Shown here piece by piece: positions 10,265-61,891 of a DNA stretch of 64,000 nucleotides. A model generated the notes under the pieces. It saw nothing but the letters and a program-made list of their open reading frames with translations. It was not told the DNA's origin and made no database searches. Both the position numbers and the translations under genes were made by a program. Where the stretch lies: NCBI GenBank assembly GCA_963796275.1, contig CAWCKY010000006.1, positions 2,496,001-2,560,000 of the forward strand, in the 5' to 3' direction. Within the stretch, counting starts at the first letter, position 1. The number at the start of each line of letters is the position of its first letter. The DNA comes from an uncultured Acidobacteriota bacterium (GTDB taxonomy: Bacteria > Acidobacteriota > Blastocatellia > RBC074).

Positions 10265-10474
10265 TCAATCGATCGCGATCATCACATCGCTCGCTTTGAT
10301 GACGGCATAGACATCTTTGCCGGCAGACAAAGTTAGCCGCTCGGCCGATTCTTTTGTGATGATCGCGACGACCTCAAGTCCATCGGCGAGTTCGACGATC
10401 ACCTCAGTATTAACCGCACCGGGTAGTATCTGCTTGACCGTACCCTTCAGAGTATTGCGCGCGCTGATATCCAT
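10265..10474 (-). CDS. mop: Molybdenum-pterin-binding (Mop/TOBE) protein
   Basis: MDISARNTLKGTVKQILPGAVNTEV...IITKESAERL...AVIKASDVMI, classic molbindin. Confidence 0.93.
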   Translation of the reverse strand: MDISARNTLKGTVKQILPGAVNTEVIVELADGLEVVAIITKESAERLTLSAGKDVYAVIKASDVMIAID

Positions 10475-10748
10475 TATTTATACCGCTCCCATCTGTGAAT
10501 TTTGGCCTCAGGGAATCACTGTATATCATCTCTGCGTCCAGGCTCAATAAGAATCATCCGAAATACCATAAGACGTCAAAAAGTTTGATGAAACCATATC
10601 AAACCGTATAGGTATACGTGCATTCTATTGCGATAATCCGGTAGTAACGGTATAGGATAGTATACTTAGGTGTTTACATCGGCAATGTCGCATTTCAGCC
10701 GCGTTAGCCCACAAGAGCGCAAGGCTAATGCGGCTTAAAGAAGTCGCT

Positions 10749-11021
10749 ATGCTTTACATGATAATCGAGAAATTCAAGCATCAGGACCCGATTCCTGTCT
10801 ATCGGCGCTTCCGCGATCGCGGTCGTCTGGCTCCGGTAGGCTTGCAGTATATATCGAGCTGGGTCGATGAAAAGCTTGAACGTTGTTTTCAACTGATGGA
10901 GACATCAGATCGCAAACTTATTGACGATTGGATCGCCAATTGGATCGATCTCGTCGAGTTCGAAGTTTACCCGGTCATGCTCTCAGCGGAAGCTGCGGAG
11001 AGAGTCGCTGGGCGACTCTAG
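10749..11021 (+). CDS. DUF3303-like small protein
   Basis: MLYMIIEKF...VYRRFRDRGRLAP.GLQYISSWVD....CFQLMET...W...W.DLVEFEVYPV. Confidence 0.8.
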   Translation: MLYMIIEKFKHQDPIPVYRRFRDRGRLAPVGLQYISSWVDEKLERCFQLMETSDRKLIDDWIANWIDLVEFEVYPVMLSAEAAERVAGRL

Positions 11022-11039
11022 GGTAAGACAACAATTCAA

Positions 11040-11152
11040 TCAACTCCGAGTCGCCGTCAACCTACGGGTCCGCTATGCCAAGGGCCTAAGGACGCGTGAC
11101 CGATAGGGTGTGAGGGGAAACGCTCACGCCTCCCGTGCTTGGAAAGGAGAAG
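11040..11152 (+). ncRNA. Moco-class riboswitch (molybdenum/tungsten cofactor), apparently lacking P3
   Basis: AACTCCGAG...AACCTA...CTAAG...AGGGTGTGAGGGGAAACGCTCACGCCTCCCGTGCTTGGAAAGGAG then ATG 11155; P1 CTCC/GGAG contains the SD; the GCCTCCCGT...GGAAAGG 3' end resembles the E. coli moaA leader; Mop and Mo-domain genes are adjacent. Confidence 0.85.
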
Positions 11153-11154
11153 GC

Positions 11155-14100
11155 ATGTCAGTTTGGCGGGCGTCGCTAACGCGACGCGGGAATATCCTTC
11201 AAGCCTTCCGTGGATTTTGCGTCTTCCTGACGCCCATATTCACCATTATCTTTCTACTCACCTCGTCTTCTGTCGTGTTGGCGCAAGCCGGCCAGGCGGA
11301 ACTCACCGGCGAGGTACGCGACAGTTCGGGCGCCGGGATCGCGAAGGCGACGATCACCGTGACGCAGATTGAAACGGGGGATGTCACAAAAACGGCATCG
11401 GGGCAAAATGGCGTCTATACCATCACCAATCTGCGTCCCGGTCTCTATACTGTGACCGTCGAGGCAAACAGCTTTCGCCGCTCCGTGCAAGAAGGTGTGC
11501 GGCTGATGACGGGCGAGCGCATACGCCTGGACATGGCTCTGACCGCCGGCGAGATCAACGAGGAGATCAAGGTCACCGGCGACGCTTCGCTGCTGAGGAC
11601 CGAGAGCGGCAGTCTCGGGCAGGTCATTCCGAACCGCCGCATCGTCGATCTGCCGTTGAACGGGCGCAATTTCTTCTCACTTATCTCGCTCGTCCCTGGC
11701 GTCGCCGCGCCTCCGCCGACGACGGCAGGCCCTTCGTTTCCGCGTCTCAACGGCGGCAGACCGCGCGTCAATGAGTACCTCTACGATGGTATCTCTGCGC
11801 TGCAGCCCGAGCCGGGGCAGGTCGCATTCAATCCGGTGATCGATGCCATCCAGGAGTTCAAGGTCGAGGTCAACTCGCCGCCCGCCGAGTTCGGACGCTT
11901 CAACGGAGGCGTCGTCAACTTGACGACCAAATCAGGCACGAATGGATTCCACGGCACGGCGTTTGAATTCTTACGCAACGAAGCGCTCAACGCCCGCAAC
12001 CTGTTTGCGCCCGCGACGCCGGCCAATCCGAATAAGCCGGTTTTTCGCCGCAATCAGTACGGCTTCGCCCTCGGCGGTCCGATCATCAAAGATCGAACCT
12101 TCTTCTTTGGCGATTATCAGGGTGCGCGCCAGCTCATCGGACGAGTTGTAACCTCGAACGTGCCGACGCTCGCGCAGCGCAACGGTAACTTCTCTGCGAA
12201 TCTCGGAGCGCCGCTCTTCCTCCAGACAACGACGACGGGCGGCGTCACGACATCAAGCGCGACGACGACCAATACTGGTGTCCCGATCAACGTCCTTGCT
12301 ACTAACGGTGCTACGATCCAGGCCCGTGTCGGGCAAATCTTCCGCCCGAGCGATAAACTAGCCTATGTGGGCATCGTCAACGGCAACATCGTGGGCAACA
12401 TCATCCCGCTCACCGACTTCGATCCGGTCGCGAGACAACTGCTCGACCGCTATCCGTTGCCGACATCGGCGGGCGCGGCCAACAACTTCCGCCGCGTTGC
12501 CAACGAAGGAACGAATCAGGATCAGTTCGATGTGCGCCTCGATCATCGCTTTTCGGATCGCGACCAGGTCTTCGGGCGCTATTCGTTCTTCAACGAAGAC
12601 GCGACGCCGGTGACGCCGCTGCCTGACGGGAGCGGCGCCATCACACAGGGCGCGCTCGGATTTCAGAAGAGCCGCGGCTATCAGACTGTCGGCAACTACG
12701 TGCACGTTTTCGCCAAGCCGATCGTCAACGAGTTGCGCTTCGGTTATACGCGCCGCTCGATCGACCGCCGAGCGTTGCTGCTCGATGCGCCGCCGTCAGA
12801 GAGCCTGGGGTTACCCGGTATCCCGCAGAATGCGGCTTTTCAGAACGAATTGCCGACCTTCACGATCGCCGGCTTACAACAGCTCGGCCCAACGACGAGC
12901 ACAGACTCGCTCTTCAACACGGATGTGTGGCAGGTCTTCGATTCGGTCGGTTGGCAGCGCGGGCGCCACTCGATGAAGTTCGGCGTCGATTTTCGGATCG
13001 AGCGGCTGAACGTTCTGCAGCCGCCGTCGCCGACAGGCATCTTCAATTTCACCGCGCCTTTCACCAATTCACGAGGGACGGACAATACCATCGGCACACA
13101 GCCGGGCGGTGCGACGACAGGCACCGTGCTGGCCGGGCAGACTGGAAACGCCCTGGGGAGCTTCCTGCTCGGGCAGGTGAGCAACTTCTCGATCGACCTC
13201 CAGCAGGACGTGATTCACCCGCGCGCCCGCATCCTCGAGTTCTTCGCGCAGGACGATTTCAAGGTGACTCCGCGTCTCACCATCAACGCCGGAGTGCGTT
13301 ACACGCTGAACTTCCCATCGACCGAGACCGATAACCAGGGATCGATCTTCAATCTCGAAACGCAACAACTCGAATATCTCGGAGAGAATGGGTTTCCCAG
13401 AGCGGCGCGTCGAGTTGCACAAACTCAACTTCGGGCCGCGCCTCGGGATCGCTTACCGGCTGACCGATCGCACGGTGTTGCGCTCGGGTTACGGTTTGAT
13501 CTGGCAGGAGCAGGCCGGCATCACGACTCCGTTCACGATCCCGCAGTTTCCGTTCATTCAGACCGTCACGCAGCGCTCGCTCGACGGCGTGACGCCAGCG
13601 TTCGTGCTCTCGTCGGGTCCGAACGTCCAGCCCATTCCGCTAACGCCTGATGCGGGATTGGGGCAAGGCGTCTTCTCGGTCGATCGCGATTTGGGAAGCG
13701 GCTACGTCCAGCAATGGAACGTCGCAGTTCAGCGCGAGATCAGCGGCAACCTGGTCGCCGAGGTCGCATATGCGGGGTCGAAGGTCACGCACGTCGGCAT
13801 TCCTGATACGAACATCAATCAACTCACCGCTGAACAACTCGCGCAGGGAAACGCGTTGCTGCAACTGGTGCCGAACCCGTATCTTCGGACAGATCCCGCG
13901 CAATTCCACACTGGGCGACCCGACGATTCCGCGTGCACAGTTGCTACGGCCCTACCCGCGATTCACGGCTGTCAGCCTCTATCGCAACAACGTGGGCAAC
14001 ACGAGCTACCAAGCCCTGCAAGCGAAACTCGAAAAGCGCCTCTCGCGGGGGCTCGCGTTCCTTGTCAGCTATACCCGCTCGAAGCTGATCGACGACGCCG

Positions 14101-14739
14101 GGCAGGTCTTCGATCAGACCATCCAGACCGGACCGGTCGGCAACTTTCCCGTCGCCGACAGTTTCAACCGCGCGCTCGAACGCGACGTCTCGACCGGGGA
14201 CATCCCGAACGTCTTCGTCACCAGCTTCACCTATGAACTGCCGATGGGTAAGGGGCGCGGGTTCAATCTCTCCGGCATTGCCGACAAACTATTCGGCGGA
14301 TGGAATATCAACGGCATGGTTTGGTTGCAGTCGGGGTTGCCGTTCCCGGTCACGCAGATCACGAACTTCAACGCCTTCGCGGGATTCGGCACGCAGCGGC
14401 CGAATATTCTCCGCGATCCGACTCTGGCCGCCGACGAGCGGACGACCGATCGCTGGTTCGACACGTCGGCCTTTGCGGTCGCTCCGCAATTTACGATCGG
14501 GAACTCTTCGCGCAACCCGGTGCGTGGCCCTGGCTACACGCACGGCGGATATCGCGTTTATCAAGCGTACGTATTTCGGTGAGGACATAAACTTCGAATT
14601 CCGCACGGAGATATTCAACCTGACGAACACGCCGCCGCTCGCCAACCCGAACGGCGTGGTTGGCAATGCGGCGTTCGGCACGATCACATCGGCGGGAGAT
14701 CCGCGCGTGATCCAGTTCGGACTGAAGCTGAATTTCTGA
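11155..14739 (+). pseudogene. Oar-like TonB-dependent receptor, split by three +1 frameshifts (~13411, ~13883, ~14538)
   Basis: ORFs 11110, 13388, 13650 and 14233 join into one receptor: carboxypeptidase-regulatory N-domain, DLPLNGRNF, EFLRNEALNARN, NFGPRLGIAY, FNLTNTP, C-terminal PRVIQFGLKLNF; may be sequencing errors. Confidence 0.88.
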
Positions 14740-14802
14740 GGGAGAAAGATACTCCTTATGACCGGTCACCAATGATTCGAGAGGAGGCGTCAATGAGACT
14801 CC

Positions 14803-15306
14803 ATGATAATCCGCGGAATCCTTTGCTCCCTGATCATAACGTTTTACGCCACAGTTCCTGCCCCGGCGCAGACCGGTGAAACGAAGAAAAGCCTGCGGAT
14901 TAGCGGGGAAGTGGAGCGTCCGCTCACTCTCAAAGCCGAGGACCTGGCCAAATTGCCGCGCCGCAGCGTCAGGGCAAAAGACCACAGCGGAAAGGATTCG
15001 GAGTTCGAGGGCTCGCCGCTGGTCGCGGTCTTAACGCTTGCCGGCGTGAAATTCGGCGAAGATCTGCGCGGCAAGAATCTCGAGCTCTACCTCGTGGTCG
15101 AGGCGGCTGACGGTTATCGGGCGGTCTTCGCGCTGCCGGAACTTGATCCAGCCTATACAGACAAGGTCATCCTGCTGGCGGATAAACGCGACGGCAAGGC
15201 GATGGACGCCAGGGAAGGCCCGCTGAGGATCGTCGTGCCCGACGAGAAACGTCAAGCGCGCTGGGTTCGTCAGGTGACTGGGCTTGTCGTCAAACGCGCG
15301 CAATAA
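14803..15306 (+). CDS. Exported molybdopterin-binding-domain (Oxidored_molyb-like) protein
   Basis: Signal peptide; LRISGEVERPLTL..DLAKLP, VEAADGYRAVFALPELDP, EGPLRIVVPDEKRQARWVRQV. Confidence 0.85.
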   Translation: MIIRGILCSLIITFYATVPAPAQTGETKKSLRISGEVERPLTLKAEDLAKLPRRSVRAKDHSGKDSEFEGSPLVAVLTLAGVKFGEDLRGKNLELYLVVEAADGYRAVFALPELDPAYTDKVILLADKRDGKAMDAREGPLRIVVPDEKRQARWVRQVTGLVVKRAQ

Positions 15307-15335: not shown

Positions 15336-15545
15336 ATGGGAGTATCCCTCTCCCGGGTGAATCGAGGCATGGCCTTAGAGAAATTGGGACGGGATGATGA
15401 AGCGATGGAGGATTACGAGCAGGCTCAGTCGATCATCTTAGCCATTTGCCGGTGGAGCGATGTTACCCGGTATCGGTTGGACATGGGCATCGCGCTGCAG
15501 CATCCCCGGCAATACGAGCAGGCAATTCATGGAATCCATGAATGA
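15336..15545 (+). pseudogene. TPR-repeat fragment
   Basis: VNRGMALEKLGRDDEAMEDYEQA and LDMGIALQH..QYEQAI TPR-like helices in a short isolated ORF. Confidence 0.5.
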
Positions 15546-15702
15546 CTGAACGCCGTGGAGCCGCTATTTAAAAAATGAAGACCTCTATCCTGTAGTTTCG
15601 CTTTTACCGCTATTCCATATCCGCGCCTGCATGTCATGGACGACTTCTTCAAATTTCCGATAGGGGTTTTCCCGACAGTGCCAGATGTGCATAATGGCGC
15701 GA

Positions 15703-17844
15703 ATGTCTATATATCTTAAACACCTTCTCGGAATCATAATTATCGCTTCAATCGCCGGAGCGACCATTCAACCGGTCGCGCTGGCGCAGACGACAGAACC
15801 GAAAGCCCCGATTCGCTTGGAACCGATAACCGTCCACGTTTACAAAGATCCGGACGACGTGCAGCGGCTCCCGGTCAGCGTCACCGGTGTTTCGGAATCC
15901 GTGCTGCGAGGGGCCGGCGTCCTCAGGGTCAGCGACGCTGGAATTCTGGCGCCGAATACTTTTTTCTCGGAGTTCACGGCGCGCAAGCTCAGTAATGCGC
16001 GCTTTCGCGGGATCGGTTCGAGCCCGTCGAATCCCGGCATCACGACCTACATCGACGGTGTACCGCAACTCAATACAAATTCTTCAAGCATCGAGTTACT
16101 GGACATCGAGCAGATAGAATTCGTCCGCGGACCTCAGAGCGCGCTGTTCGGACGCAATACCCTTGGTGGACTCGTCAATATCACGACTCAACGGCCTGAA
16201 ATGAAGGGATGGACGGGCGGTCTCACAGTCCCGCTAGCCAATTACTCGGAATGGGATGCGAGAGCGAACATTTCAGGGCCGATCAGCGAGAAAGCCGGCG
16301 TCCGCGTGACGGTCGGGCGTGGGACGCGCGATGGTTACACGATCAACGATGTCACGGGAAACGATCTGGACTATCGAAGGACGTCCTATGGCAAGGCTCA
16401 ATTGTGGTGGGCGCCAACCAGCAGGTGGGAAGCGCGTTTGATTGTCACCGGCGAGCGGGATCAGGACGGCGATTATGCGCTCAACGACCTGGCGGCACTG
16501 CGCCAGAATCCGTTTCGTTCGTCGCGGGACTTCGAGGGAATAGTGGAGCGGGATGTTCTGGCATCGACCGTTCAGGTCCGTCGGGAAGGGAGCCGTTTTG
16601 CATTCAGCACCACCGCCGGCCTGGTGAACTGGAAGACGCGGGACGTCACCGACCTGGACTACACTGCGCGCCCATTGATCACGCGGGACAATAAAGAAAA
16701 GGATGTACAGTTCACCCAGGAAGTGCGGCTCGCATCGGCTGCCGGCGCCCCCGTCAGATTGGGGGACCGCGTGAGGTTGCGATGGCAGACCGGAGCGTTC
16801 TTCTTCTCGCAGAACTACGATCAGGACGCGATCAATAACTTCTCGCCTTTCCTCCTTTCCCCCCAGGTGGGATTTCCGGTGGCACAGCATTCTCCTCGGT
16901 CGGCGCTGAACGACACGGGCGCTGGCGTGTACGGGCAGATGACGGCGACCTTCAGCGAGAGCTTCGACCTGACGTTCGGCGCCCGCGTCGATCACGAAAA
17001 CAAGCGAGCGGACCTGCGCACGTTTTTCGATCCTGCAATCAGTCCCGAAAACAGAGTAATAGCGAAGAAAGGCTTCTCCAATGTGTCCCCACAGTTGGCG
17101 GCATCGTACCGGTTTGCGGGAAGTCGCATGGTCTATGCGTCGGTCGGCCGCGGATACAAGGCCGGGGGCTTCAATCCTGCATCGCCGGCAGGCAGCGAGG
17201 CCTATGGAGAAGAAGGAGCGTGGCACGTCGAGAGCGGCGTCAAGACACTGCTGGCCGGCGGCAAGTTGTCCGCCAACGCTGCGCTGTTCTACATCGACTG
17301 GAGCGGCTTGCAACTGAATGTGCCGAATCCGGCCGTGCCGGCGCAGTTCTTTATCAGGAACATCGGGCGCGCCACTAGCAAGGGATTCGAAGCCGAGCTC
17401 AACGCGCGGCCTCACGCCAATTTGGATCTTTTCGCCACTTTCGGATTGACGAATGCGCGGTTCGCGGATGCTACGTCTTCTGGAGGAGTCGACGTATCCG
17501 GTAACAAACTGCCCAGCGCGCCGGATCACACCTTCACCGTTGGGGCGCAGGTTACGAAGGACCTCAAAAGCAGCTTCGCACTCTACGGCCGCGGCGAGGT
17601 ATGGTTCAACGGCGGGTTCGAATACAATGACGCCAACACGCAAAGGCAGGAGGCGTATTCACTCGCGAATATCCGAGCCGGATTGCGCGGGCGATATATG
17701 TTTGTGGAAGCATGGATCAAGAACGCGTACGACACTCGGTATATTCCGATCGCTTTCGCCTACGGCAGCTTTGCGCCTTCTGGCTTCGTGGGTGAAATGG
17801 GAGCGCCGCGCCGTATTGGAATCACGATGGGCTTGACGTTTTAA
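15703..17844 (+). CDS. Classical TonB-dependent receptor (plug + barrel)
   Basis: LEPITV TonB box, RFRGIGS, YIDGVP, IEQIEFVRGPQSALFGRNTLGG, GYKAGGFN, terminal F; ORF open from 15685, ATG 15703 lies 7 nt after CATAAT. Confidence 0.92.
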   Translation: MSIYLKHLLGIIIIASIAGATIQPVALAQTTEPKAPIRLEPITVHVYKDPDDVQRLPVSVTGVSESVLRGAGVLRVSDAGILAPNTFFSEFTARKLSNARFRGIGSSPSNPGITTYIDGVPQLNTNSSSIELLDIEQIEFVRGPQSALFGRNTLGGLVNITTQRPEMKGWTGGLTVPLANYSEWDARANISGPISEKAGVRVTVGRGTRDGYTINDVTGNDLDYRRTSYGKAQLWWAPTSRWEARLIVTGERDQDGDYALNDLAALRQNPFRSSRDFEGIVERDVLASTVQVRREGSRFAFSTTAGLVNWKTRDVTDLDYTARPLITRDNKEKDVQFTQEVRLASAAGAPVRLGDRVRLRWQTGAFFFSQNYDQDAINNFSPFLLSPQVGFPVAQHSPRSALNDTGAGVYGQMTATFSESFDLTFGARVDHENKRADLRTFFDPAISPENRVIAKKGFSNVSPQLAASYRFAGSRMVYASVGRGYKAGGFNPASPAGSEAYGEEGAWHVESGVKTLLAGGKLSANAALFYIDWSGLQLNVPNPAVPAQFFIRNIGRATSKGFEAELNARPHANLDLFATFGLTNARFADATSSGGVDVSGNKLPSAPDHTFTVGAQVTKDLKSSFALYGRGEVWFNGGFEYNDANTQRQEAYSLANIRAGLRGRYMFVEAWIKNAYDTRYIPIAFAYGSFAPSGFVGEMGAPRRIGITMGLTF

Positions 17845-17898
17845 ATGTTGGGCACCGGTCGCTTCGCGGCGGGAACCTTGATGATTGGAGAGAGACCT

Positions 17899-18684
17899 AT
17901 GAGTCCAGCGATCACGGCGAGACAACTGGATGCCCGGGCGGTTCTGCAATATAAGGAAGACGGATTCCTTATCGTTCGCGGCGTCTTCTCGGCCGATGAA
18001 ATCTCCGCGCTCGACGGAGAGGCGGAGCGCCTTTACCACCGCAGCGACCTCATCGATACCGATAACATCCGCTGCCGCTGGCAAAATCACTTTCAGACGG
18101 GGGAATGCCGCTTCGATTGCTTCGATCCTGTCATCGATCTCAGCTCCGCTTACGAACGCGTTGCGCGCAGCCAGCATCTGCTCGATCTCGTAGGACAGCT
18201 CTACGGAGAGCGTGCGTGTCTCTTCAAGGATAAGCTGATCTTCAAGCCTCCCGGCGCAGAAGGTTACCACCTTCATCAGGATTACATCTCGTGGGATTCC
18301 TTTCCCACCAGCTTTCTCACCGCAGTCGTCGCTATCGATGCCTGCGATCGGGAGAATGGAGCGACCGAGGTCTTTCGCGGCTATCATCTCCGCGGATACA
18401 TGTCGCCCAAGGACGGAATGTATCACCAACTGCCGGACGAATCCGTGGACACATCGGCGGGGGTCGTTTTGACTTTATCTCCCGGCGATGTCGCCATCTT
18501 CAGTGGATATACGCCGCACCGTTCATCTCCCAATCGTTCCGGCCGCAGCCGGCGCCTGCTCTACCTGAGCTACAACGCATTCAGTGATGGCGGCGAACAG
18601 CGTGACCGTCATTACGCCGAGTTTGCGGATTGGCTGAAGGACCGATATGCCGAATACGGCAAGACGATGACGTACTTCCGATAG
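17899..18684 (+). CDS. PhyH-family Fe(II)/2-oxoglutarate dioxygenase
   Basis: YKEDGFLIVRGVFS, FKDKLIFKPPG, HQD...H(TPHRSSPNRS..SR) facial triad, ENGATEV; GGAG RBS upstream. Confidence 0.92.
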   Translation: MSPAITARQLDARAVLQYKEDGFLIVRGVFSADEISALDGEAERLYHRSDLIDTDNIRCRWQNHFQTGECRFDCFDPVIDLSSAYERVARSQHLLDLVGQLYGERACLFKDKLIFKPPGAEGYHLHQDYISWDSFPTSFLTAVVAIDACDRENGATEVFRGYHLRGYMSPKDGMYHQLPDESVDTSAGVVLTLSPGDVAIFSGYTPHRSSPNRSGRSRRLLYLSYNAFSDGGEQRDRHYAEFADWLKDRYAEYGKTMTYFR

Positions 18685-18688
18685 TTCT

Positions 18689-19921
18689 ATGAGCTTGATC
18701 AACTCTTGTATAAACGTCCTGATCGCCGCGTTAATTATGGTTGCAACGCTGCCCGGCAGGACACAGGGTTTGGGACTGATTACCGAGCCGCTGCTGCGCG
18801 ATCTGAATGTGGACCGTGTCACGTATGCCCACATTAACCTATGGGCGACACTTCTCGGGGCGATTGTTTGCCTGCCCGCCGGAAGGATCTTCGATCGATT
18901 GGGCCTGCGAATCGCGACCACATTGATCACGGCGCTGCTAAGCTTCGTTGTATGGCAAATGAGCGGCCTCGCGGGCGGAATCGCGGCTCTCTTCGTCCTG
19001 GTCTTTGCGACCCGCGCGCTCGGGCAGAGCGCACTTTCAGTTGCGAGCATCACGCTCGTGGGGAAAGCGTTCGATCGCCGCGTCGGTTTCGCCATGGGCG
19101 TCTATTCCGTGCTCTTGAGCATGTTTTTTGCAGGCGCATTCATCATTGTCGGCAGCGTCGTGCGCAATACCGGCTGGCGCGAAGCCTGGTCAGGAATCGC
19201 ATTGGTGTTGGTCTTGTTTATCGCGCCCGCTGTGCTGGTGTTTATTCGTGAGCCCGGCAGAGCCTCGCCCGCGCAAGAGGAGAAAGGCGCCGCCGGAGGC
19301 GAAGATCTCTCGTTGCGAGATGCCCTGGGGACATCCGCCTTCTGGGTATTCGCAGGCGCAACCTCTCTCTATGGCCTGGTGGCTTCGGGGCTGGGGTTGT
19401 TTAACGAAGCTCTGCTGGCCGAACGCGGCTTCAGCCAGGAGACTTATCATAAGTTTCTGGCGGGAACGGCAATCATTGCGCTGTTCGGGCAGCTCGGCTG
19501 CGGTCTGATGACGTTGCGGTGGTCGATGCAGCGGCTTGCCGCCTACGCTTTGTTCGCGTACGCGGTGGCATTGGTCGCGTTTCCTTTTTTGACGACGCTG
19601 CCCCAGCTCTGGGGGTTTGCGGCACTGATGGGTTTCTCCGGCGGAATGATCACCGTGATCTTCTTTGCCATCTGGCGCCGCGCCTATGGGATGACGCACC
19701 TGGGCCGGATTCAGGGGGCCGCCCAGATGCTGACCGTCCTGGCTTCAGCCATCGGGCCGTTGCTGTTCGCGAAAAGCGTAGAGCTGACGGGTTCTTATAT
19801 GCCGGTTCTGCGATTGCTCGCGCCCGCAGTCGCTTTGTTGGGCATTGCTGCATTGCGCGTGCGCTTGCCTTTGACACCGGCGCCCGTCGAAGCTGCGCCG
19901 GATCACGTAGCCGTAAGATGA
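18689..19921 (+). CDS. MFS transporter
   Basis: About 12 hydrophobic segments; GRIFDRLGLR motif A; YGMTHLGRIQG. Confidence 0.9.
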   Translation: MSLINSCINVLIAALIMVATLPGRTQGLGLITEPLLRDLNVDRVTYAHINLWATLLGAIVCLPAGRIFDRLGLRIATTLITALLSFVVWQMSGLAGGIAALFVLVFATRALGQSALSVASITLVGKAFDRRVGFAMGVYSVLLSMFFAGAFIIVGSVVRNTGWREAWSGIALVLVLFIAPAVLVFIREPGRASPAQEEKGAAGGEDLSLRDALGTSAFWVFAGATSLYGLVASGLGLFNEALLAERGFSQETYHKFLAGTAIIALFGQLGCGLMTLRWSMQRLAAYALFAYAVALVAFPFLTTLPQLWGFAALMGFSGGMITVIFFAIWRRAYGMTHLGRIQGAAQMLTVLASAIGPLLFAKSVELTGSYMPVLRLLAPAVALLGIAALRVRLPLTPAPVEAAPDHVAVR

Positions 19922-19938
19922 AGGTATAGGGAGGTCGT

Positions 19939-21003
19939 ATGACAGCTATTGATGCTTCGCTTATCAAATTTCACATTTCGCTCACTGCCAGCAACCTTGA
20001 CCGTTCTATCGCATTCTACCGCGCTCTTCTCGGTACGGAACCGGCAAAGGTCCGTGATGATTACGCCAAGTTCGAGCTTGCCGAACCGCCGCTCGTTCTA
20101 TCGTTAATCCCCGGTGGTGTCGGCGGAAACGTCAACCATGCGGGATTGCGCGTACGAACCGCCGATGAACTGGTAGACATTCAGCGGCGGCTCGAGATTG
20201 CAGGCATCGTGACCCAGCGCGAGGAGGGAGTTGAGTGCTGCTATGCCCTGCAGACCAAGTTTTGGGTCGCCGATCCGGATCGGATGCTGTGGGAGGTTTA
20301 TCTTTTCCATGAAGATATCGACGAACGTGGAGACGCCACCGTTCCGGTCGCAGCGCTCAACGCTCCAGTTTCTCTATCGTCAAAGCCGCTCTCGAACTGG
20401 ACGCACCGTCTGGGCAGCGCTTTCCCCGACCGAATTCCTCATGACGACAACTCGCTGAATGAAGTGTTGCTTGAAGGAAGCTTCAACGCGGAGCGTGACA
20501 ATGTAAACCGCGACAAGCTGATGGCCGAAGCGCTGCGGGTGCTGCGGCCCGGCGGTGAAATACGATTGCACATGCTGACAGGCGACTCTTCCGGAAATTA
20601 CGGAAAGCTTTCTCTACCGGGTCCGGCATCGGCTGTAGGGTACGCGCCGATGCCATCAGAGCTGACGGCCGCTCTGACTCGATCGGGGTTCCGCGACGTT
20701 CACATCGTCCTGCTATCGCAAAAGCCGTGTTTCGTGGCTGAAGGAGTGGCGATGCGCGAGTGCCGCATCCAGGCGAGGAAACCCGGCCACCGGACGCAGC
20801 AGAAACAGCATCACGCGGTCTATCGCGGGCCTCTAGCCGAAGTAACGGACGACTACGGCAACGTGTTTCGGCGGGGAGAACTCACGCCGTTGAATGTGCA
20901 CGACTGGCAGATGCTATCGAAGGGAGACGCGGCTGCATCATTCGTGTTCATGACGCCGGGTGAGAGGAGCGAGGCTGCTTGCTCTTCAGTCGTTGACCTA
21001 TGA
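19939..21003 (+). CDS. ArsI/CadI-family VOC metalloenzyme fused to a truncated methyltransferase-like domain
   Basis: FHISL...DDYAKF...NHAGLRV...ECCYALQTKFWVADPD...WEVY (ArsI signature); then IPHDDNSL.EV...AEALRVLRPGG and AVYRGPLAEVTDDYGNVFRRGE; GGGAGG RBS. Confidence 0.85.
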   Translation: MTAIDASLIKFHISLTASNLDRSIAFYRALLGTEPAKVRDDYAKFELAEPPLVLSLIPGGVGGNVNHAGLRVRTADELVDIQRRLEIAGIVTQREEGVECCYALQTKFWVADPDRMLWEVYLFHEDIDERGDATVPVAALNAPVSLSSKPLSNWTHRLGSAFPDRIPHDDNSLNEVLLEGSFNAERDNVNRDKLMAEALRVLRPGGEIRLHMLTGDSSGNYGKLSLPGPASAVGYAPMPSELTAALTRSGFRDVHIVLLSQKPCFVAEGVAMRECRIQARKPGHRTQQKQHHAVYRGPLAEVTDDYGNVFRRGELTPLNVHDWQMLSKGDAAASFVFMTPGERSEAACSSVVDL

Positions 21004-30655: not shown

Positions 30656-33600
30656 ATGTACGTTATACCATTGAGATCGCTTCTTCTTCTTTTACTCCTC
30701 ACTCTCCCTGTTTTGGCGCAGAACTATCGCGGCACGATTCGCGGGAGAATCGCAGATTCGCGGAGCGCCGTCATTCAGGGGGCCTCGATAAAAGCGACGC
30801 ATCTGGAGACTAACGAGTCGCGCTCAGCCGTCACCAGCCAGAGTGGAGAGTTCGCGCTGACCTTGCTCCGGCCTGGATATTACAGGCTCGACGTTGAGAG
30901 CAATGGGTTCGATAATTATTCGGCCGAAGTGATAGTCTCAGTAGGTCAGGATATCCGCCACGACGTTATACTCGGAGTGGCTGCCACGACTCAGGATCCG
31001 ATCCAGATCACCGATTACGGCCTCCTCAGGCAATCGTCGCCGGCGCTCGGCGCGGTAGTTGAAAACAGACAGGTCACGGGATTACCGCTCGACGGGCGTA
31101 ATTTTCTCGAACTCTCCTTGCTCGTCCCGGGCGCGGCGCCACCAGCGCAAGGTTCAGCCGCTACAGTGCGCGGCGATTTCGCCTTCAATCTCAACGGCGC
31201 GCGCGAGGATTCCAACAATTTCCTGCTCGATGGCGTCTATAACATCAATCCGACGCTCAACTCTGCCGGCGTCGTACCGCCTGTTGATGCGATCCGTGAG
31301 TTCGAGGTCGCCACCAGCAATTATGACGCTTCATTCGGGCGCAGCGCGGGCGGGCAGATCAGTGTCGCGATGAAATCCGGTTCTAACAACATTCACGGCA
31401 CGGTCTATGAATTTCTGCGCAACAAATCGTTCGACGCGCGCAACTTCTTCGCACCTCCCAACGAGGCCGCGCCACAATATCAACGCAATCAATTCGGCTT
31501 CAGCCTGGGCGGGCGCATTATCAGGGATCGCAGCTTTTTCTTCGCCGACTATGAAGGCACGCGTCTCCGCGAAGGCGTCACGCGCGTGACCAACGTGCCC
31601 ACGCTGGAGGAGCGCAACGGCAACTTTTCGCAGAGCCTGCTGACGAAACCGGTTATTCCTCAGGGCCAACCAGGGGCGGGATTTCCGTTTCCAGGTGGCC
31701 AGCTGCCGTTTATCAATCCGATCGGGCAGGGGATCGCCGCTCTCTATCCGCTGCCCAATCGCGACACGCCGTTCGCGAACTTCGTCTCTTCGCCTACGCG
31801 CCGTGACCGTAATGATCTGTTCGACATACGTGTGGACAATCAGATCAGCCGGGCATCACAAATCTCCGCGCGCTACAGCTTCAACGACCGCGATCTCTAC
31901 GACCCATTCACGGGGCCGAGCTTTGCGCAGGTTCCCGGTTTCGGCGTCCGCGTGCCGCGCCGCGGCCAGAATGCGATGATCGGCGAAACGCACGTCTTCT
32001 CGCCCACGCTGATCAACGATGTGCGCATCGCCTTCAGCCGTACGTCCTCCGCCGTCAACCATGAGAACCAGGGAAGCAGTATCAACCAGCAGGTCGGGAT
32101 GCCCGAGCTATCCGACAACCCGCGCGATTTCGGCCTGAGCTTTATCACGATCACGGGCTATTCGCCCATCGGCGACGAGTACAACAACCCGCAATCCAGT
32201 GCGATCGACGTCTTTCAGCTGCTCGACACGGCGACCTGGTCGCGCGGGCGGCATCTTCTCAAATTCGGCCTGGACATCCGCAAAATTCAACAGAACGCTT
32301 TCCGCGACGTGCAATCACGCGGCTTCCTGACCTTCTCGTCGTTCACTCTGGATGAGCAGGGGCAACCGGTTCCCGCGATCACTGGCAACGCGCTGGCTGA
32401 CCTTCTGTTCGGTGTGCCGATCTTCACGGGCGGCGCGCGGCTCGATAACCCGCAACACCGGCGGACCGAAAGCTATAACTTTTTCATCAACGATGGCTGG
32501 CAAATCCGGCCGAACCTTTCGCTCTCGTACGGGTTGCGTTACGAATACAACTCGCCGGCAGTGGATGCCGACGACCGCGCGAGCGTTTATGATGTGAATA
32601 CGGGCAATCTTGTCGCAGTCGGTACGAACGGCGTCCCGCGCGGCGGCTACGAACCGGACAGGAACAACTTCGCTCCGCGCCTCGGCCTCGCCTGGACATT
32701 GATCGAAAAGACCGTGCTGCGCGCCGGCTACGGCATTTACTACGACCAGTCCTCGCTGGCGGCGGGTGAAGGGCTCTACTTCAACGCGCCCTATTTCAAT
32801 CTGAATCTCTATTTCCCGCTGCCGCAGCTACCGCTGCAACTCTCGGATCCGTTCCCCGCAAACTTTCCCGTCACGATGCCGCAATCGGCTAACGCGTTCC
32901 AGCGGGATCTGCGCACTTCGTACGTGCAACATTGGAACTTCGGTCTGCAAAGGCAATTGGGAGCGAGCCGCGTGCTAGAGGTAGGATACGTCGGCTCCAA
33001 AGGGACGAAGCTCCTGGCCGCGCGAGACGTCAATCAGCCGCGCCCGGGGCCGGAACTACCGAACCCGCTCATCCCATACCTGCGTCCTGATCCACGTTTC
33101 GAGGACGTCACCTATCAGGAGTCGAGCGCGAATTCGATCTATCACAGCCTGCAAACGCGCTTTCAACAGCGTCTTGCCGCCGGGCTGTCGGTACTCTCGT
33201 CCTACACGTGGTCGAAATCCCTAGACAACGCTTCCGGTATCTTCACCAGCGCGGGCGATCCGAACTTCCCGCAAGACAGTCTTAACCTTAGTGCCGAACG
33301 AGGGCGCTCGAATTTCGACGTTCGACACCGCTTCGCGTTCAGCTACGCGTACGATCTACCGTTCGGTGCTGGGGCGACCTCGGGTTTGAAAAAAGGATTG
33401 CTGGCGGGCTGGCAGACGTATGGCGTGATCACCTTGCAGACCGGGCGCCCATTCACGGTGGCATTGCTGCCGGATATAGACAACAGCAATACGGGGCGCT
33501 CGACCCTCGGTTTCGGCGCGAATGACCGGCCGAATGTGATCGGGCAGGGAGAGCTGGGCGATCCAACTCCGGAGCGATGGTTCGATACGGCGGCGTTTCA

Positions 33601-33862
33601 GTTCTCCGCGCCGTTCACCTTCGGTAACGCCGGTCGCAACGTACTGGATGGGCCGGGCTATCAGAACGTTAACTTCTCGCTGGTCAAAAACACGGCATTG
33701 CGAGAGTCGTTGAATCTGCAAATTCGCACGGAGTTCTTCAATTTTTTCAATCACCCGAATTTCGATCTGCCTGATAATTTCCTGGGCTCGCCTTCGTTTG
33801 GGAGCATCCGTTCGGCACAGAGTCCGCGCCGCGTGCAGTTCGGCATGAAATTGTTGTTTTGA
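30656..33862 (+). CDS. Oar-like TonB-dependent receptor, 1068 aa
   Basis: Carboxypeptidase-regulatory domain, [48 protein letters not shown]. Confidence 0.95.
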
Positions 33863-33998
33863 TGGAGAGGCTTGATGGATTGCGTTCCACCGTCCCCCTA
33901 CAAGGCAGATGAGGACTGCCAGGTTGGCACAATACTTTCATCTGGCCGGTGGAAGTACCGGCTGCTGAACAAACTGTAGTTCACCTTGAGGAGTTTGA

Positions 33999-34605
33999 AT
34001 GTCCAAGTCCGACACAAAAGGCCTTTCTCGCCGTGGTTTCATCAAAACTGCCGGCAGCTTGCCGTCTTATTGAATGGAGACAACCTGCTCGATCGGCGCC
34101 AGCTGGAAGGGCTGTCCACCTTTGACTGTCAAACGGGATTATCGAAAGAGAAGGACGTCGAATTCGATTTCACGCGTCAGTCCGCCGCTTTGCAGCCGGA
34201 CAAAATCGTAGACAGCGCTTGCCAGTTCTGTAATTCCCTGTGTCGCCTGAAAGTGCATATGAAGAGCGGGCGTATCATCGATATTCTGGGTGAGCCCGAC
34301 GATCCGGTTCAGGCGGGGAACTTTTTATATAAAGGGGCCGATGATGACGCAACTGGTCTATAACCGCCATCGCCTCACGACTCCCTTGAAACGGGTCTCC
34401 GGGGAGAAGGGCTCGCCCGATTCCCAATTCTCCCCGATCTCATGGGATGAAGCGCTGACAACCATTGCACAGAAATTCCTTGCGCTAAGAGACGCCGGCG
34501 AGGCGAGAGCGATTGCGAATAGAACATCGGGCCGGTTGCCGCGCGGGCCGGGTTCACTGGTCAATCGTTTCTTTACGCTCCTCGGAAGTCCGAACGATTA
34601 TTGCA
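33999..34605 (+). pseudogene. Truncated Tat-exported DMSO-reductase-family molybdopterin oxidoreductase
   Basis: GAGGAG RBS, MSKSDTKGLSRRGFIK Tat motif; frameshift; CQFCNSLC Fe-S motif with the expected fourth Cys read as Tyr; frameshift; RLTTPLKR..ISWDEAL..IA; homology ends at LLGSPND. Confidence 0.85.
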
Positions 34606-34712
34606 AGGGAAGGTTCACGGGTTTCCGCTCGCCGCCGAACGCCTGGCAGTCTGTTAGTGATCTGTCCGATAAGAGTTGAGCTGAAGTTAGTATTCAGCAG
34701 GTTGAATGAATT

Positions 34713-40960: not shown

Positions 40961-41629
40961 GCAGTGGCATTGCTGGAGGTCAGCGATCCTCCAGCTAGCT
41001 CTGCAAGTACGAAAGGAGCGGCACAATCCAACTTCGATTGTGATGATAGAAGCCTAATGGACCGAGCTGAGTAATTTCGATAATGCCAGATTTCTTTGCC
41101 CGTTAGGCATTTGAAAATGGCCCAGCAATTTATTGTTAGGCTCGGGGGAAACAAGGCGATCCAAGTTGACTCTTGCAATCTCTTCAACTGTCCCTACGGA
41201 TTTGGTTGGCGTTGCTGCGGCATTGAAAGATTTCATTCCGAAATTCTCCCCGAGTTATTAGCCACATGGTGGGAATCTTTTGTTGAATACGCTCGCCCTC
41301 CTATCCACTGCCATAGCGCACAGAATGAAATTGCGCAGAATCCTGTTACAGCGAAATTTCTCTATCTCTGACCTTCCTTTAGGTTATGGCGGAAAAGAAG
41401 GCTTCAAAGGAGCATAAAGCGCGTGGTCATTCGGCAATCGCGCAATCTCATTTTAGCTTGCCACAATTTGAACGTGTAAGTCTGTGGGAGAGATCGACGA
41501 GGCTTAATGGAGGTTTTCCGACGAATGTGGTAATGCCCACATCACTTCGATGAGGCACCTTTGCTCTTGCTCGACTGTCGTTCGGGCGTATATTGACCAT
41601 CCACTCTACATTTTTCTGGAGGTCAAGGA

Positions 41630-43393
41630 ATGCCCACACAGCTCGCCCTTTCGTTCGACGCTGTCCCCGTCACCTGCGAAGTTCAACAACGCTATCATTC
41701 CATCGCCCCCTGCCTCGCCGGAATCGGCACTCCGGCCGAACAGGCACAAGCGCTCAATCTTGGTTACTCGACCGTCACTCGCTGGCTACGCGAATTTCGT
41801 GAAAAGGGCATGCTGGGACTCTTTCCGGAAACTCAGTTCCCGCGTGACCCCTACACTCCGGAGTGCGTCATCGTGCAGTCGATCTTTTTCAAATGCTGCG
41901 CGCCGAAAGCGGGCGACCGCGAACTGGCGCGTGTCGCTCACCACCTGACCGGACATCGGATTGATCACCATACCGTCAAAGCTCTCTGCGAACGCTTCTT
42001 CTTCTGGCGGCATCCTGAGTTTCAGCAGCTCGTCCGCTATCCGGTCCCAACTGATCCGCAGGCGCTGCGTCTGGAGGTGGTCCGACTAAGTCAGCAGGGC
42101 TGGACAGAGACCCGAACTGCCGAATTGCTGCGCACCTCACGCAAGACAGTTCGCAAATGGTTGCGCCGCGCACGACAGCAGGCGCAACAGAGTGACGGTT
42201 CACAGCCTCTGCTAATCGATCTGCCGCGCGCTCCTCACCACCCACGGCGCAAGGTCTATTTCGGGGCTATTCATGCCGTCCTCACGCTGCAAAAGAAATA
42301 CGGCTATGCTGGATGGTTCCGCATCAAGGGGTATCTGGAACAGGACTACGGCATCTATCTCAGCTCGACCACGATCAAGAAGATCATGGCACTTAATCGC
42401 CGCCTCCATCTGGCGCCGCAACGCCCCACGGTCATTGTTGAAGTACGCGATCCACGCGAGGGGCCGAAGAAAAGTCATCACCCGTTCGAGCACACTTACG
42501 TTGACTTGCGCTACCTCGACGCCAAGCCCGCCGGCGTACAACTCTATTCCTGTCTGCTGTTGGAAGGATTCTCCAGAACCATCCTCGCCGGCTCGCTCAC
42601 GCCGGAACAGGGGGTCGGTGTGGTCCTGCACGTCTATTTTCAGGCGCTGCTGCGCTGGGGACTTTGGAAAGAGTTGGTCTCTGATCACGGAGGCCAGTTC
42701 ATCAGCCACGATTTCGCGCGCGTCAATAAGCGGCTCGGCATTCACCACCACCTCTATGAAAAAGGTCACCCCTGGCAGAACCTGATTGAGAGCCAGTTCG
42801 GCATTCAAGCCCGAATCGGCGAATATCGTTGGGAACAATGCCAGAGCGTCGAGGCCGCAGTCGAATTTCATCGCGATCTGATCCGCGATCACAATCGCTT
42901 GCCGCACTGGGCGCATCGCCAGCGCAACGACGAGAAGCACTCGCCTCTGGCGGTTCTTGGAGAGGCAAGAGGCGCACGCATCGAACTTGCCGACCTGCAG
43001 CGGGCCTTCGGGCAGCGCTATTGTCAGCGGATGACCGACGCCCGCGGTTTCGTCAAGATCGGAGACTGGAAGATATATGTCGAAGATGGCTTACCTCGAA
43101 CTCCCGTGCAGCTTTCGTACTGGGATGGACGATTACGGGCTGAGTATCAGTCTCGGCTCCTGACGGAATATCAGTGCAAATGGACCAAGCAGTCTGCCCG
43201 CCCGACAGTCATTTCGCATCCGCAATATCACGCTCACCCGTTTCAGTCGAGACAGATGTCTCTCTTTGACCCGTTGTGGGTGCGAGACCCGATAGAACCT
43301 GAGAACCAAAAGACTCAAAGACCTGGGAGGAAACCAGCTGAAGCCAAACAGTTACGGCTGTATCTTGGGCCGGAGCTAATTAAATCCGCGTAG
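41630..43393 (+). mobile_element. DDE (rve/IS481-like) transposase with two HTH regions, 587 aa
   Basis: YSTVTRWLREF and SRKTVRKWLRR HTHs; TYVDLRYL / LVSDHGGQF / QNLIESQF DDE triad; GGAGG RBS; element ends not resolved. Confidence 0.88.
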
Positions 43394-45941: not shown

Positions 45942-46108
45942 GCCTGTGAGCACGAGCGAAGGGAAACGATCTGGAAGCGATCATTCGATGCGACAGATTC
46001 CATGAAGAAATATCGATGAATACGGGCCACTCGAATCGATCCAGCGAAATTCAGAAGATAAAGCGGTGCCGCATACCGATTCATTCAAACCTATAGAGGA
46101 GAATTGTC

Positions 46109-49100: not shown

Positions 49101-49339
49101 TCGGAAACGCGGGGCGGAATATCGTTCGAGGCGACGGTTTCCGCAGCGTGGACATGTCACTGTTCAAGAACATTCGGATCAGCGAACGGATTGGTTTGCA
49201 GATGCGATTCGAATCGGTGAACAGCTTCAACCATACGAACTTTCAGGCGCCGGTTACGAATCTTGCGGCGAATGCGGGGTTGTATATCGCTGCCGCCCAA
49301 CCGAGGATATTGCAACTGGGATGTAAGCTATCTTTCTAG
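46109..49339 (+). CDS. Oar-like TonB-dependent receptor, 1076 aa
   Basis: GAGGAG RBS, TTG start, DLPLNGR, YEFFRND, DRNNFGPRVG, PRILQLGCKLSF. Confidence 0.95.
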   Translation: MNNLRRGSILIACLLSLTRLASAQGSGVVVGTITDSTGNVVPRAKVVAVNLSTLIERTTVATDAGEFQIPGLPAGNYTIEVSHSGFKALKSSELAVNVGQERRVNLTLEVGAVSETVTVQATAAAAVTETATLSTVVDQRSIVDLPLNGRQLQNLALLVPGVTASWRRTTAADRYAKAREGLSGAFVVNGARPRSNDFILDGVPMNLLQYGVVNFIPSNEAVQEFEIKTSVPQAEYGRAMGSTVNMVTRGGTNGYHGSLYEFFRNDWMDANNTFNKRSNVGRGVLRQNQFGGSFGGPIVRNKHFFFANTELTRIVEGVESRLTSVPTPAEKAGMIEYADAAGTRQVLDLSGRITPLSARLLQFYPLPNVSTTTGFNYNAPQTILLNDYQVHARTDHHLTDRDTVMARVSWNLNDQDYLIYRFGGPFVPGFNLPNPETTSNGTVGHLHTFGTNMVNELRVGWTRYSNDLGNGDQTSATEIGLPNGYDIAPGIPAINFLAGGIADIGGRSLYGSRWQNETSGLLSDTLSWSRGRHNFKTGGQVARYHLNTRGAINQRGTVEFDGSRNSLIPATTANARANTLADLLLGLPVRASITIGEFGRGYRQWAYAGFIQDGWRATSKLTVNLGLRYENNVPWTEVNGKLTNLVPGGSLEVVGSSALKNFYQPDRNNFGPRVGLAYDLSGNGKTVIRAGFGMVYETLQQTNSVQPVENNPPYSLPAVVRLPAPFSTTGAPSTTLLDLRTSAQPSRAIAVVGVDDFRNPYAMQTNFSIQRMLTPQLLMEVGYAGTRGVRLPVFTDLNQAPLERLTPAQRNSIAAEIAAGRDTTPILSQLRPYPQYDSITFSSNAASSTYHSLQLKLEKRFGTGPMLLGSYTFGKSIDNASDHASTDSSEMVLDSNNLAHQRGLSSFDIEHRFSLAFNYDLPFKQFLPGPKGLLDGWQVNGIISLQTGQPLTPFVNTLDPYRNESFNRPNLIGDPNANVPAGYAFNPAAFQLAAPGTFGNAGRNIVRGDGFRSVDMSLFKNIRISERIGLQMRFESVNSFNHTNFQAPVTNLAANAGLYIAAAQPRILQLGCKLSF

Positions 49340-61664: not shown

Positions 61665-61891
61665 AATAGAATCTCCTTCAGATTGTGAAAGTATAGATGG
61701 GGCTGTCGATTACATTTCAAACATAGAACGCAGGCGGGAGCGTGAAGTTGCAAAATATGGAATCCGACAGCGTCATCGACGGTATTTCACGACCATGACT
61801 GACCATTACTTATCCACTAGAATTCAAACAAAAACCATCTATGGGGAGAACGAGCGAGGCATTTCATTATGTGCCGGTCTGCATTCAGCGT

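Follow-up and report, generated by a model that had tools for sequence, protein, structure and literature searches.

In vitamin B12 uptake, the TonB-dependent receptor (TBDR) BtuB stands under a cobalamin riboswitch and works together with BtuF and BtuCD. Molybdate is usually assumed to pass the outer membrane passively. To our knowledge, only the inner-membrane step of its uptake, carried out by ModABC, has been characterised, and the textbook ModABC/ModE/Mop system has no dedicated outer-membrane component. Reviews name ModABC alone for molybdenum, and TonB-dependent transporters for iron, zinc, cobalt, and nickel (PMC4965479). The molybdenum cofactor (Moco) riboswitch of E. coli moaA carries its ribosome-binding site inside stem P1 (PMC2408646). 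Forms without stem P3 were proposed by Regulski et al. in 2008 to sense the tungsten cofactor, Tuco (PMC2408646), and are likewise treated as Tuco riboswitches in a study of Eubacterium limosum (PMC11725836). In this study, a P3-less riboswitch of this class was found directly upstream of an Oar-type TBDR in a 64,000-nucleotide stretch of DNA (hereafter the window; contig CAWCKY010000006.1 of assembly GCA_963796275.1, positions 2,496,001 to 2,560,000) from an uncultured soil Acidobacteriota bacterium of the Blastocatellia. The locus is probably the front part of an operon for the acquisition of molybdenum (possibly tungsten) that is repressed at the level of translation.

An earlier note on this DNA, made from the letters alone, had claimed a Moco-class leader that folds with P1, P2, P4, and P5 and lacks P3, and whose P1 (CTCC/GGAG) holds the Shine-Dalgarno (SD) sequence of the TBDR. 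All of this was borne out by covariance-model search. The match to RF01055 lies above the gathering score of 36 bits (Table 1), and RF01055 is the sole family to exceed its own gathering score in an Rfam scan of the whole window. It is also the only RF01055 copy in the window genome (9.46 Mb, 7 contigs). In the alignment to the model, P1, P2, P4, and P5 are present and the positions of the P3 hairpin are deleted; the 3' strand of P1 lies inside the AAGGAG sequence that precedes the TBDR start codon. The leader thus belongs to the same RNA family as that of E. coli moaA and likewise has its ribosome-binding site inside P1, but it has no P3, and the controlled gene encodes an outer-membrane receptor instead of a biosynthesis enzyme. 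A single-sequence minimum-free-energy fold of the leader did not reproduce P1 and was no better than shuffles (z -0.86), a result that is uninformative for a riboswitch. Scans for promoters around the leader and for terminators past the small gene downstream of the TBDR gave nothing above shuffle expectation.

The linkage of riboswitch and receptor is conserved in the family. RF01055 was searched in 87 genomes of the same bacterial family, the window genome among them, and exceeded the cut-off in 17. The earlier note had proposed a survey of orthologous TBDRs for the Moco leader, and its outcome agrees with the proposal: 16 of these 17 riboswitches directly precede an orthologous TBDR (58-85% amino acid identity). 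A match just below the cut-off (35.3 bits) in G012 also stands before the orthologous TBDR. The exception is G011, whose riboswitch scores 99.6 bits, possesses P3, and precedes moaA (G-numbers denote the genomes compared, L-numbers the loci, and X-numbers soil-metagenome runs). When the 17 TBDR-linked family leaders were aligned, GGAAAGGAG was unchanged in every one, and the distance from GGAG to ATG was always 4-7 nt. Compensatory changes occur at 7 of the 23 predicted pairs, mostly in P4, and P1 varies by one mismatch only. P3 is missing in all 17, so these leaders represent a P3-less subtype within RF01055.

Genes for molybdate transport follow the receptor in most relatives. Downstream operon content was scored in the six relatives with enough contig past the TBDR. 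In G004 the order is TBDR, small protein, ModA (TIGR01256, 225 bits), MOSC, ModB (TIGR02141, 240 bits), and ModC; in G020 and G006 it is TBDR, small protein, ModA, Mop, ModB, and ModC. The order in G089 is TBDR, small protein, and ModA, and in G029 the TBDR and small protein are followed by a Soli_cterm protein; in G098 the TBDR was found with no match to the small protein. Thus, the small protein stands beside the TBDR in five of six relatives, modA lies downstream in four, modB and modC were confirmed in three, and Mop lies within the operon in two. The matches to ModA (225 and 218 bits, cut-off 62.5) and ModB (cut-off 182.6) are at equivalog level; the ModC of the relatives reaches 216 bits, under the cut-off of 285. 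In G004, G020, and G006, the modA of the operon is the only one found in the genome. In the window genome, the orthologous modABC lies outside the operon, 620 kb away (G000:C6:1885150-1887941), behind an open reading frame (ORF) that reads, from the sequence and no family scan, as an excisionase-type helix-turn-helix (HTH) protein with a TOBE domain. A divergently oriented mop gene near the riboswitch, named in the earlier note, was confirmed as Mop/TOBE; its product shares 70% identity with the Mop of G020 and G006, whose gene stands between modA and modB in their riboswitch operons. Considering the operons of the relatives and the distant modABC here, the window locus seems to have arisen by rearrangement of an ancestral operon with TBDR, small protein, modA, mop, modB, and modC.

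Two orthologous TBDRs, those of G030 and G001, have no RF01055 match even at an E-value of 0.01. The earlier note had named leaderless orthologues as grounds for rejecting its idea; the leader is indeed missing in these two, but both remain linked to molybdenum. In G001, which belongs to the same genus, modB precedes the TBDR. In G030, the TBDR follows a perfect palindrome and an ORF that, judged from sequence only, closely resembles the HTH-TOBE regulators of the window genome and G081; the G081 regulator was confirmed by Pfam as HTH_17+TOBE and lies beside a gene for the small protein. Past the G030 TBDR are a partial gene for the small protein, a binding protein of the SBP_bac_11 family (199.9 bits), and genes resembling modB and modC, with 49 and 47% amino acid identity to those of G004 (tblastn). 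It therefore appears that in G030 a putative molybdate-sensing protein replaces the riboswitch. This regulator swap, together with the modB neighbor in G001, strengthens the link to molybdenum rather than weakening it.

Riboswitch-linked TBDRs are also found in other families of the phylum. Among 151 genomes sampled, 29 carry RF01055 above the cut-off, and 45 matches were tabulated, including that of the window. Of 29 loci retrieved, 27 were classified; those left out are L058 and L059, the latter being sub-threshold. At 9 of the 27, a classical TBDR with Plug and barrel is the first gene after the riboswitch, and all nine of these leaders lack P3 and have the SD in P1. The first downstream gene is moaA at 11 loci; moeA, moaC, a ModA-like binding protein, a hydrogenase-like gene, and an aldehyde dehydrogenase gene occur once each, and two first genes have no Pfam family. 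Together with the Oar-type receptors described here, two structurally different TBDR classes thus stand under the Moco/Tuco riboswitch. Lack of P3 is not confined to TBDR leaders in this phylum: P3-less forms also stand before moaA, moeA, and moaC, and forms with P3 before moaA. A group II intron domain (RF02003, 67 bits, 2263-2349) was noted at the contig end of L038 (G153), some 640 nt away from a classical TBDR that is linked to a riboswitch.

This arrangement suggests cofactor-repressed, TonB-dependent acquisition of molybdenum, possibly of tungsten, which we consider the likely function of the locus. When the pterin cofactor is plentiful, it would bind the aptamer so that P1 forms; P1 would bury the AAGGAG ribosome-binding site, and the first gene, the Oar-type TBDR, would not be translated. 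When the cofactor is low, the site would open and the receptor would be made. The receptor may then spend TonB energy to move a scarce Mo (or W) species over the outer membrane, where the periplasmic cysteine-less protein of the PruR type with a sulfite-oxidase (SUOX) fold, presumably encoded on the same transcript, would handle the cargo. Finally, ModABC, whose genes share the operon in relatives and lie 620 kb away here, would carry molybdate over the inner membrane. Like the BtuB system, the proposed pathway combines a cofactor riboswitch, a TonB-dependent receptor, a periplasmic binding protein, and an ATP-binding cassette (ABC) importer. It differs in that the sensed Moco/Tuco is probably not the transported molecule, the ABC importer is ModABC for an oxyanion, and the receptor is Oar-type. 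The textbook molybdate system is represented by ModA, ModB, ModC, and Mop in the relatives' operon and, in G030, by a TOBE regulator in place of the riboswitch.

A full-text search of the literature found no paper in which a TBDR is connected with a Moco riboswitch or with the uptake of Mo/W, although RegPrecise and the supplementary tables of Regulski et al. may list such cases; "TonB" and "outer membrane" do not occur in the main text of that paper (PMC2408646). In the Caldithrix genome paper, TBDRs are placed behind NikR sites and a thiamine pyrophosphate riboswitch, and the Moco riboswitch is assigned to a major facilitator superfamily (MFS) transporter. What appears new here is that a known riboswitch gains a regulon member, and TBDRs a presumed class of substrate. 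The receptor is tied to molybdenum status by two independent sensors, most orthologues having the cofactor riboswitch and one a TOBE-domain regulator, and it often lies in the modABC operon. It may therefore be a concrete candidate for energized molybdenum scavenging in Acidobacteria, which are abundant soil bacteria with many molybdoenzyme genes. If the proposal is true, the regulon of the Moco/Tuco riboswitch would be widened. The locus would also offer the first physiological context for a large family of small cysteine-less SUOX-fold proteins.

Several observations speak against this interpretation. TBDRs normally carry chelates or large ligands, and the surroundings of the locus showed no genes for metallophore biosynthesis. 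The modABC genes of the window genome stand outside the operon, and the complete genome of G029 contains no TIGR01256 modA despite having the riboswitch, the TBDR, and the small protein. In six loci examined downstream of the classical riboswitch-linked TBDRs, no Mo-related Pfam family was found. The nearest solved relatives of the small protein bind pterins, not oxyanions. The Plug match of the orthologous receptor is weak (E 0.066, 14.2 bits against a cut-off of 23.9), although it falls at residues 144-238, in the expected place. Furthermore, the riboswitch abuts a DUF3303 gene, with no convincing promoter found.

ModA-type proteins bind both oxyanions, molybdate and tungstate. The P3-less riboswitches of E. 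limosum, as described in that study, resemble the leader here in preceding metal-uptake operons and, in some cases, sequestering the translation start (PMC11725836). However, E. limosum is a Gram-positive bacterium that uses tungsten and has WOR1 and TupABC; the binding protein found here is of the ModA type, and the AOR family (PF02730) was not found in any of five genomes in a tungsten search that covered AOR only. The moaA gene is retained in all five genomes checked, the window genome among them, which also contains at least 6 PF00384 and at least 11 PF02738 genes. The missing AOR gene, the equivalog-level ModA, and the moaA, PF00384, and PF02738 genes point towards molybdenum, with tungsten as a lesser possibility. 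The earlier note's idea of a cofactor-repressed TBDR for the import of a Mo/W metallophore complex or the pterin cofactor is thus supported in part, as far as the conserved linkage to molybdenum genes is concerned; the cargo may be an oxyanion, a metallophore complex, or a pterin, and a missing P3 may or may not stand for tungsten.

The receptor itself was recognized as an Oar-type TBDR in the earlier note, and matches to Pfam CarboxypepD_reg (64 bits) and OMP_b-brl_4 (392 bits) support this. That note did not register that the gene spans orthologue residues 1-1173 in four frame pieces, separated by three extra bases (Table 1). OMP_b-brl_4 is matched at profile positions 1-441 and 574-777 in the window pieces and at 1-838 of 838 (749.7 bits) in the intact orthologue. 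The breaks were mapped mainly against G004, an unpublished genome on which the G004 operon order given above also rests; the remaining relatives agree with the G004 picture. When an X is put in place of each break, the protein aligns collinearly with six orthologues, and no residue is gained or lost at the breaks. Identity to G004 past the breaks is not lower than that of the intact pair G004 and G089 (89.2, 87.6, and 95.5%). Seven of eight full-length orthologues (G004, G029, G020, G006, G098, G089, and G001) are in one frame. The eighth, that of G030, comes from a 9-contig assembly and is split over two frames (L096 7304-7311), probably by the same type of long-read indel error.

The error rate of the assembly was estimated from a complete relative, G029, in which 35 long ORFs (59.6 kb) were taken from twenty evenly spaced 20-kb stretches and their orthologues in the window genome were identified (identity at least 55%, coverage at least 80%). 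Five of the 35 orthologues were flagged as multi-frame: one was a neighboring paralogue, and four were truly broken, with five breaks. These four are glmS, nadA, phosphofructokinase (pfk), and a Ser/Thr kinase. Oar-type long loci number at least 155 in the window genome; 28 of the 155 are multi-frame, and once about three cases of tandem genes are set aside, some 25 true breaks remain in 539 kb. Examples of frame-broken loci are C3:1188330-1190194, C3:523568-524687, and C1:659307-660399, and one gene in the assembly other than the TBDR has two breaks within about 450 nt. Since the joint loss of glmS, nadA, and pfk is unlikely in a free-living bacterium, the assembly seems to carry about one frame-breaking indel per 12-20 kb, and the three breaks in the TBDR gene are accordingly read as artefacts; they are most likely assembly errors.

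There is a minor but appreciable chance that the TBDR of the window is instead a real, recent pseudogene, which became dispensable after modABC moved under the HTH-TOBE regulator and then acquired three frameshifts. This chance is retained because three breaks fall within 1.2 kb, a density well above the assembly average. None of them falls within a stretch of three or more identical bases, modABC is remote and behind its own regulator, and a truncated molybdopterin-oxidoreductase remnant occurs 19 kb downstream. The related soil contigs also all lack the extra bases; these contigs, from X1, X2, and X6, are relatives 88-95% alike and not the window strain. The sequencing runs found had small shares only, at most 0.17, and the near-identical run X5 (>99% alike) does not cover the three sites and so gives no read support for either view. 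On the other hand, the breaks in glmS, nadA, and pfk mark indels as a property of the assembly, in which another gene has two breaks in about 450 nt. The TBDR has no in-frame stop, no deletion, and no excess amino acid divergence past the breaks, and the riboswitch and the small downstream gene are intact.

The small downstream gene had been described as coding for an exported protein with a molybdopterin-binding domain, and the Pfam Oxidored_molyb match and a signal-peptide-like N-terminus agree with this. The family is large, with 2280 homologues at an E-value of 1e-5 or better, several of them from Blastocatellia or Acidobacteria genomes; in databases they are named "molybdopterin-dependent oxidoreductase" or "YedY-like". 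However, none of 27 aligned family members has a cysteine in the mature part, so the molybdenum ligand of sulfite-oxidase enzymes is missing. For this reason, and since its 167 amino acids are about half the length of a SUOX enzyme, the protein was not classed as a PF00174 molybdoenzyme. Invariant residues in the 27 sequences include H61, D103, Y105, R129, K132, E138-G-P-L-R142, R153, and W154. A sequence-profile search against the PDB gave marginal SUOX matches only (E 0.05 or worse) and no PruR. An AlphaFold2 model (pLDDT 77.9) submitted to Foldseek matched SUOX Moco domains at an E-value of about 1e-7. The best size-matched structures were those of the pterin-binding periplasmic protein PruR (134-149 residues, TM 0.68-0.74, normalized to target length). 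PruR, as described (PDB 7kou, 7rkb; PMC11194511), is likewise small and exported, has a SUOX fold, and lacks the Mo-ligand cysteine; its pterin is stacked between Tyr and Trp with a hydrogen bond from Asn. The invariant D103-x-Y105 and W154 appear to follow the order of these Asn/Tyr/Trp contacts, as judged from motif order and not from superposition. The sequence identity is about 20%, and the partners here are a TBDR and molybdate transporters; there is no gene for a DcpA-type partner or pruR-dcpA context.

This resemblance raises the question of whether the TBDR imports Moco, molybdopterin, a precursor, or a pterin-metal complex, which the PruR-like protein would then bind. A cofactor riboswitch over an outer-membrane receptor follows the logic of btuB, the adjoining small protein is kept in five of the six relatives, and the residues discussed above would suit a pterin. 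Even so, we regard such cofactor or pterin salvage as unlikely. The inner-membrane transporter of the operon is ModABC, with an equivalog-level molybdate match, and no candidate pterin importer was seen. Moco is very labile outside proteins, and moaA is retained in all five genomes checked. Homologues of the small protein are also found beside molybdate genes. Six loci apart from the orthologous TBDR were examined in other genomes of the family (48-67% identity), and two of them have a Mo-related neighbor. In G081 it is the HTH_17+TOBE regulator, accompanied by a TauE permease; in G025 it is a molybdate transporter of the MFS_MOT1 family (196.6 bits). No recognizable Mo-related neighbor is present at the four remaining loci (G018, G008, G005, and G011). 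That the receptor and the PruR-like protein salvage Mo/W in a pterin-bound form set free by other soil organisms (Moco, molybdopterin, or a pterin-metal complex) is equally doubtful, perhaps slightly more so; if true, the cofactor delivered by this route would itself shut the route off, in the manner of a "BtuB for the molybdenum cofactor". Near the homologue in G018, two Acido-Lenti-1 small RNA matches (45 and 39 bits) and a tRNA were found at L090 11603-11778.

The Oar protein of Myxococcus works outward. It is very improbable that the receptor here exports a protein or chelator in that manner, or imports another need of molybdoenzymes such as iron for iron-sulfur clusters: the Oar-like class is large (at least 155 loci in the window genome) with mostly unknown substrates, and the P3-less riboswitches described in E. 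limosum stand before two ABC transporters whose annotation is iron transport (PMC11725836), but the co-operonic ModABC and Mop and the TOBE-regulator swap indicate Mo/W in particular, and neither siderophore genes nor genes of iron regulation were seen in the operon's conserved part.

Table 1. Features of the riboswitch locus and its surroundings in the window, with the evidence for each.
Feature	Position	Strand	Evidence and remarks
mop, encoding a molbindin of 69 aa with a TOBE domain; divergent relative to the riboswitch	10265..10474	-	Pfam TOBE 71 bits; TIGR00638 Mop 79.7 bits
Two AAC(C/G)GTATAGG direct repeats, 44 nt apart (10602-10656), between mop and the DUF3303 gene	10602..10665		Each in a GTATA-N-TATAC inverted repeat
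DUF3303 gene	10728..11021	+	Pfam DUF3303 96.5 bits; ends 10 nt 5' of the riboswitch; not mentioned in the earlier note
Moco/Tuco-class riboswitch aptamer without P3	11032..11162	+	RF01055 55.6 bits, E 1.3e-10, full model 1-135
P1 5' strand, CTCC	11044..11047	+	cmscan structure line; CTCC in 16/17 family sequences, CCCC in G012
P1 3' strand and TBDR Shine-Dalgarno sequence, AAGGAG	11144..11149	+	GGAG at 11146-11149; 5 nt to ATG at 11155
TBDR segment 1: signal-peptide-like N-terminus, CarboxypepD_reg, divergent plug region, barrel start	11155..13410	+	87.3% identity to G004
Extra base 1, frame +1	13411	+	One base fewer in each covering contig: one each in X1, X2, X6
TBDR segment 2	13412..13882	+	91.1% identity to G004; collinear with 6 orthologues
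Extra base 2	13883	+	X1, X2, X6 contigs one base fewer at 13881 or 13883
TBDR segment 3	13884..14537	+	90.4% identity to G004
Extra base 3	14538	+	Two X6 contigs one base fewer at 14538 or 14539
TBDR segment 4, to the stop codon (C-terminal ...FGLKLNF)	14539..14739	+	95.5% identity to G004
Small exported cysteine-less SUOX-fold protein, PruR-like ("OxMo"), 167 aa	14803..15306	+	Pfam Oxidored_molyb 42.3 bits, cut-off 24

Between the mop gene and the riboswitch, two further features were found. The DUF3303 gene is peculiar to the window: a tblastn search over 20 family riboswitch loci returned only the window's own copy and none at the other 19. The direct repeats between mop and DUF3303 are possibly an operator for a Mo-responsive regulator. 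Sites of the form GTATA-N(1-8)-TATAC number only 23 in the 9.46 Mb, and two of them are these repeats. A AACCGTAT pair similar to the repeats is present in the 150-nt spacer 5' of the riboswitch-less TBDR of G001. Neither GTATA..TATAC nor AACCGTAT was found upstream of the window genome's modA or of the regulator of modA, and the neighbors of the one other identical site (C4:586142) have no relation to molybdenum.

The remainder of the window contains further receptors and a candidate molybdoenzyme fragment. A fragment of a TPR protein (69 amino acids, 15336-15545) lies between the small SUOX-fold gene and a second TBDR cluster on the + strand at 15685-21003, which begins 380 nt past the small gene and is absent from the orthologous loci of the relatives. 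This cluster encodes a classical TBDR (Plug and barrel, 719 amino acids), a PhyH dioxygenase, an MFS transporter, and a glyoxalase-fold protein. Two overlapping short ORFs at 33980-34676 (+) correspond to the N-terminus of a molybdopterin oxidoreductase (Molybdop_Fe4S4; Molybdopterin profile 1-75 of 353) and look like a truncated, frame-shifted molybdoenzyme remnant; a gene for an ABC permease comes next, starting at 34716 on the opposite strand. Two more Oar-type TBDRs, at 30656-33859 and 46097-49336 (+), are intact (OMP_b-brl_4 1-838 of 838). An insertion-sequence-type transposase (HTH_23 and rve integrase core) is encoded at 41597-43390 (+), and a TonB_C-domain protein at 60384-61709 (-).

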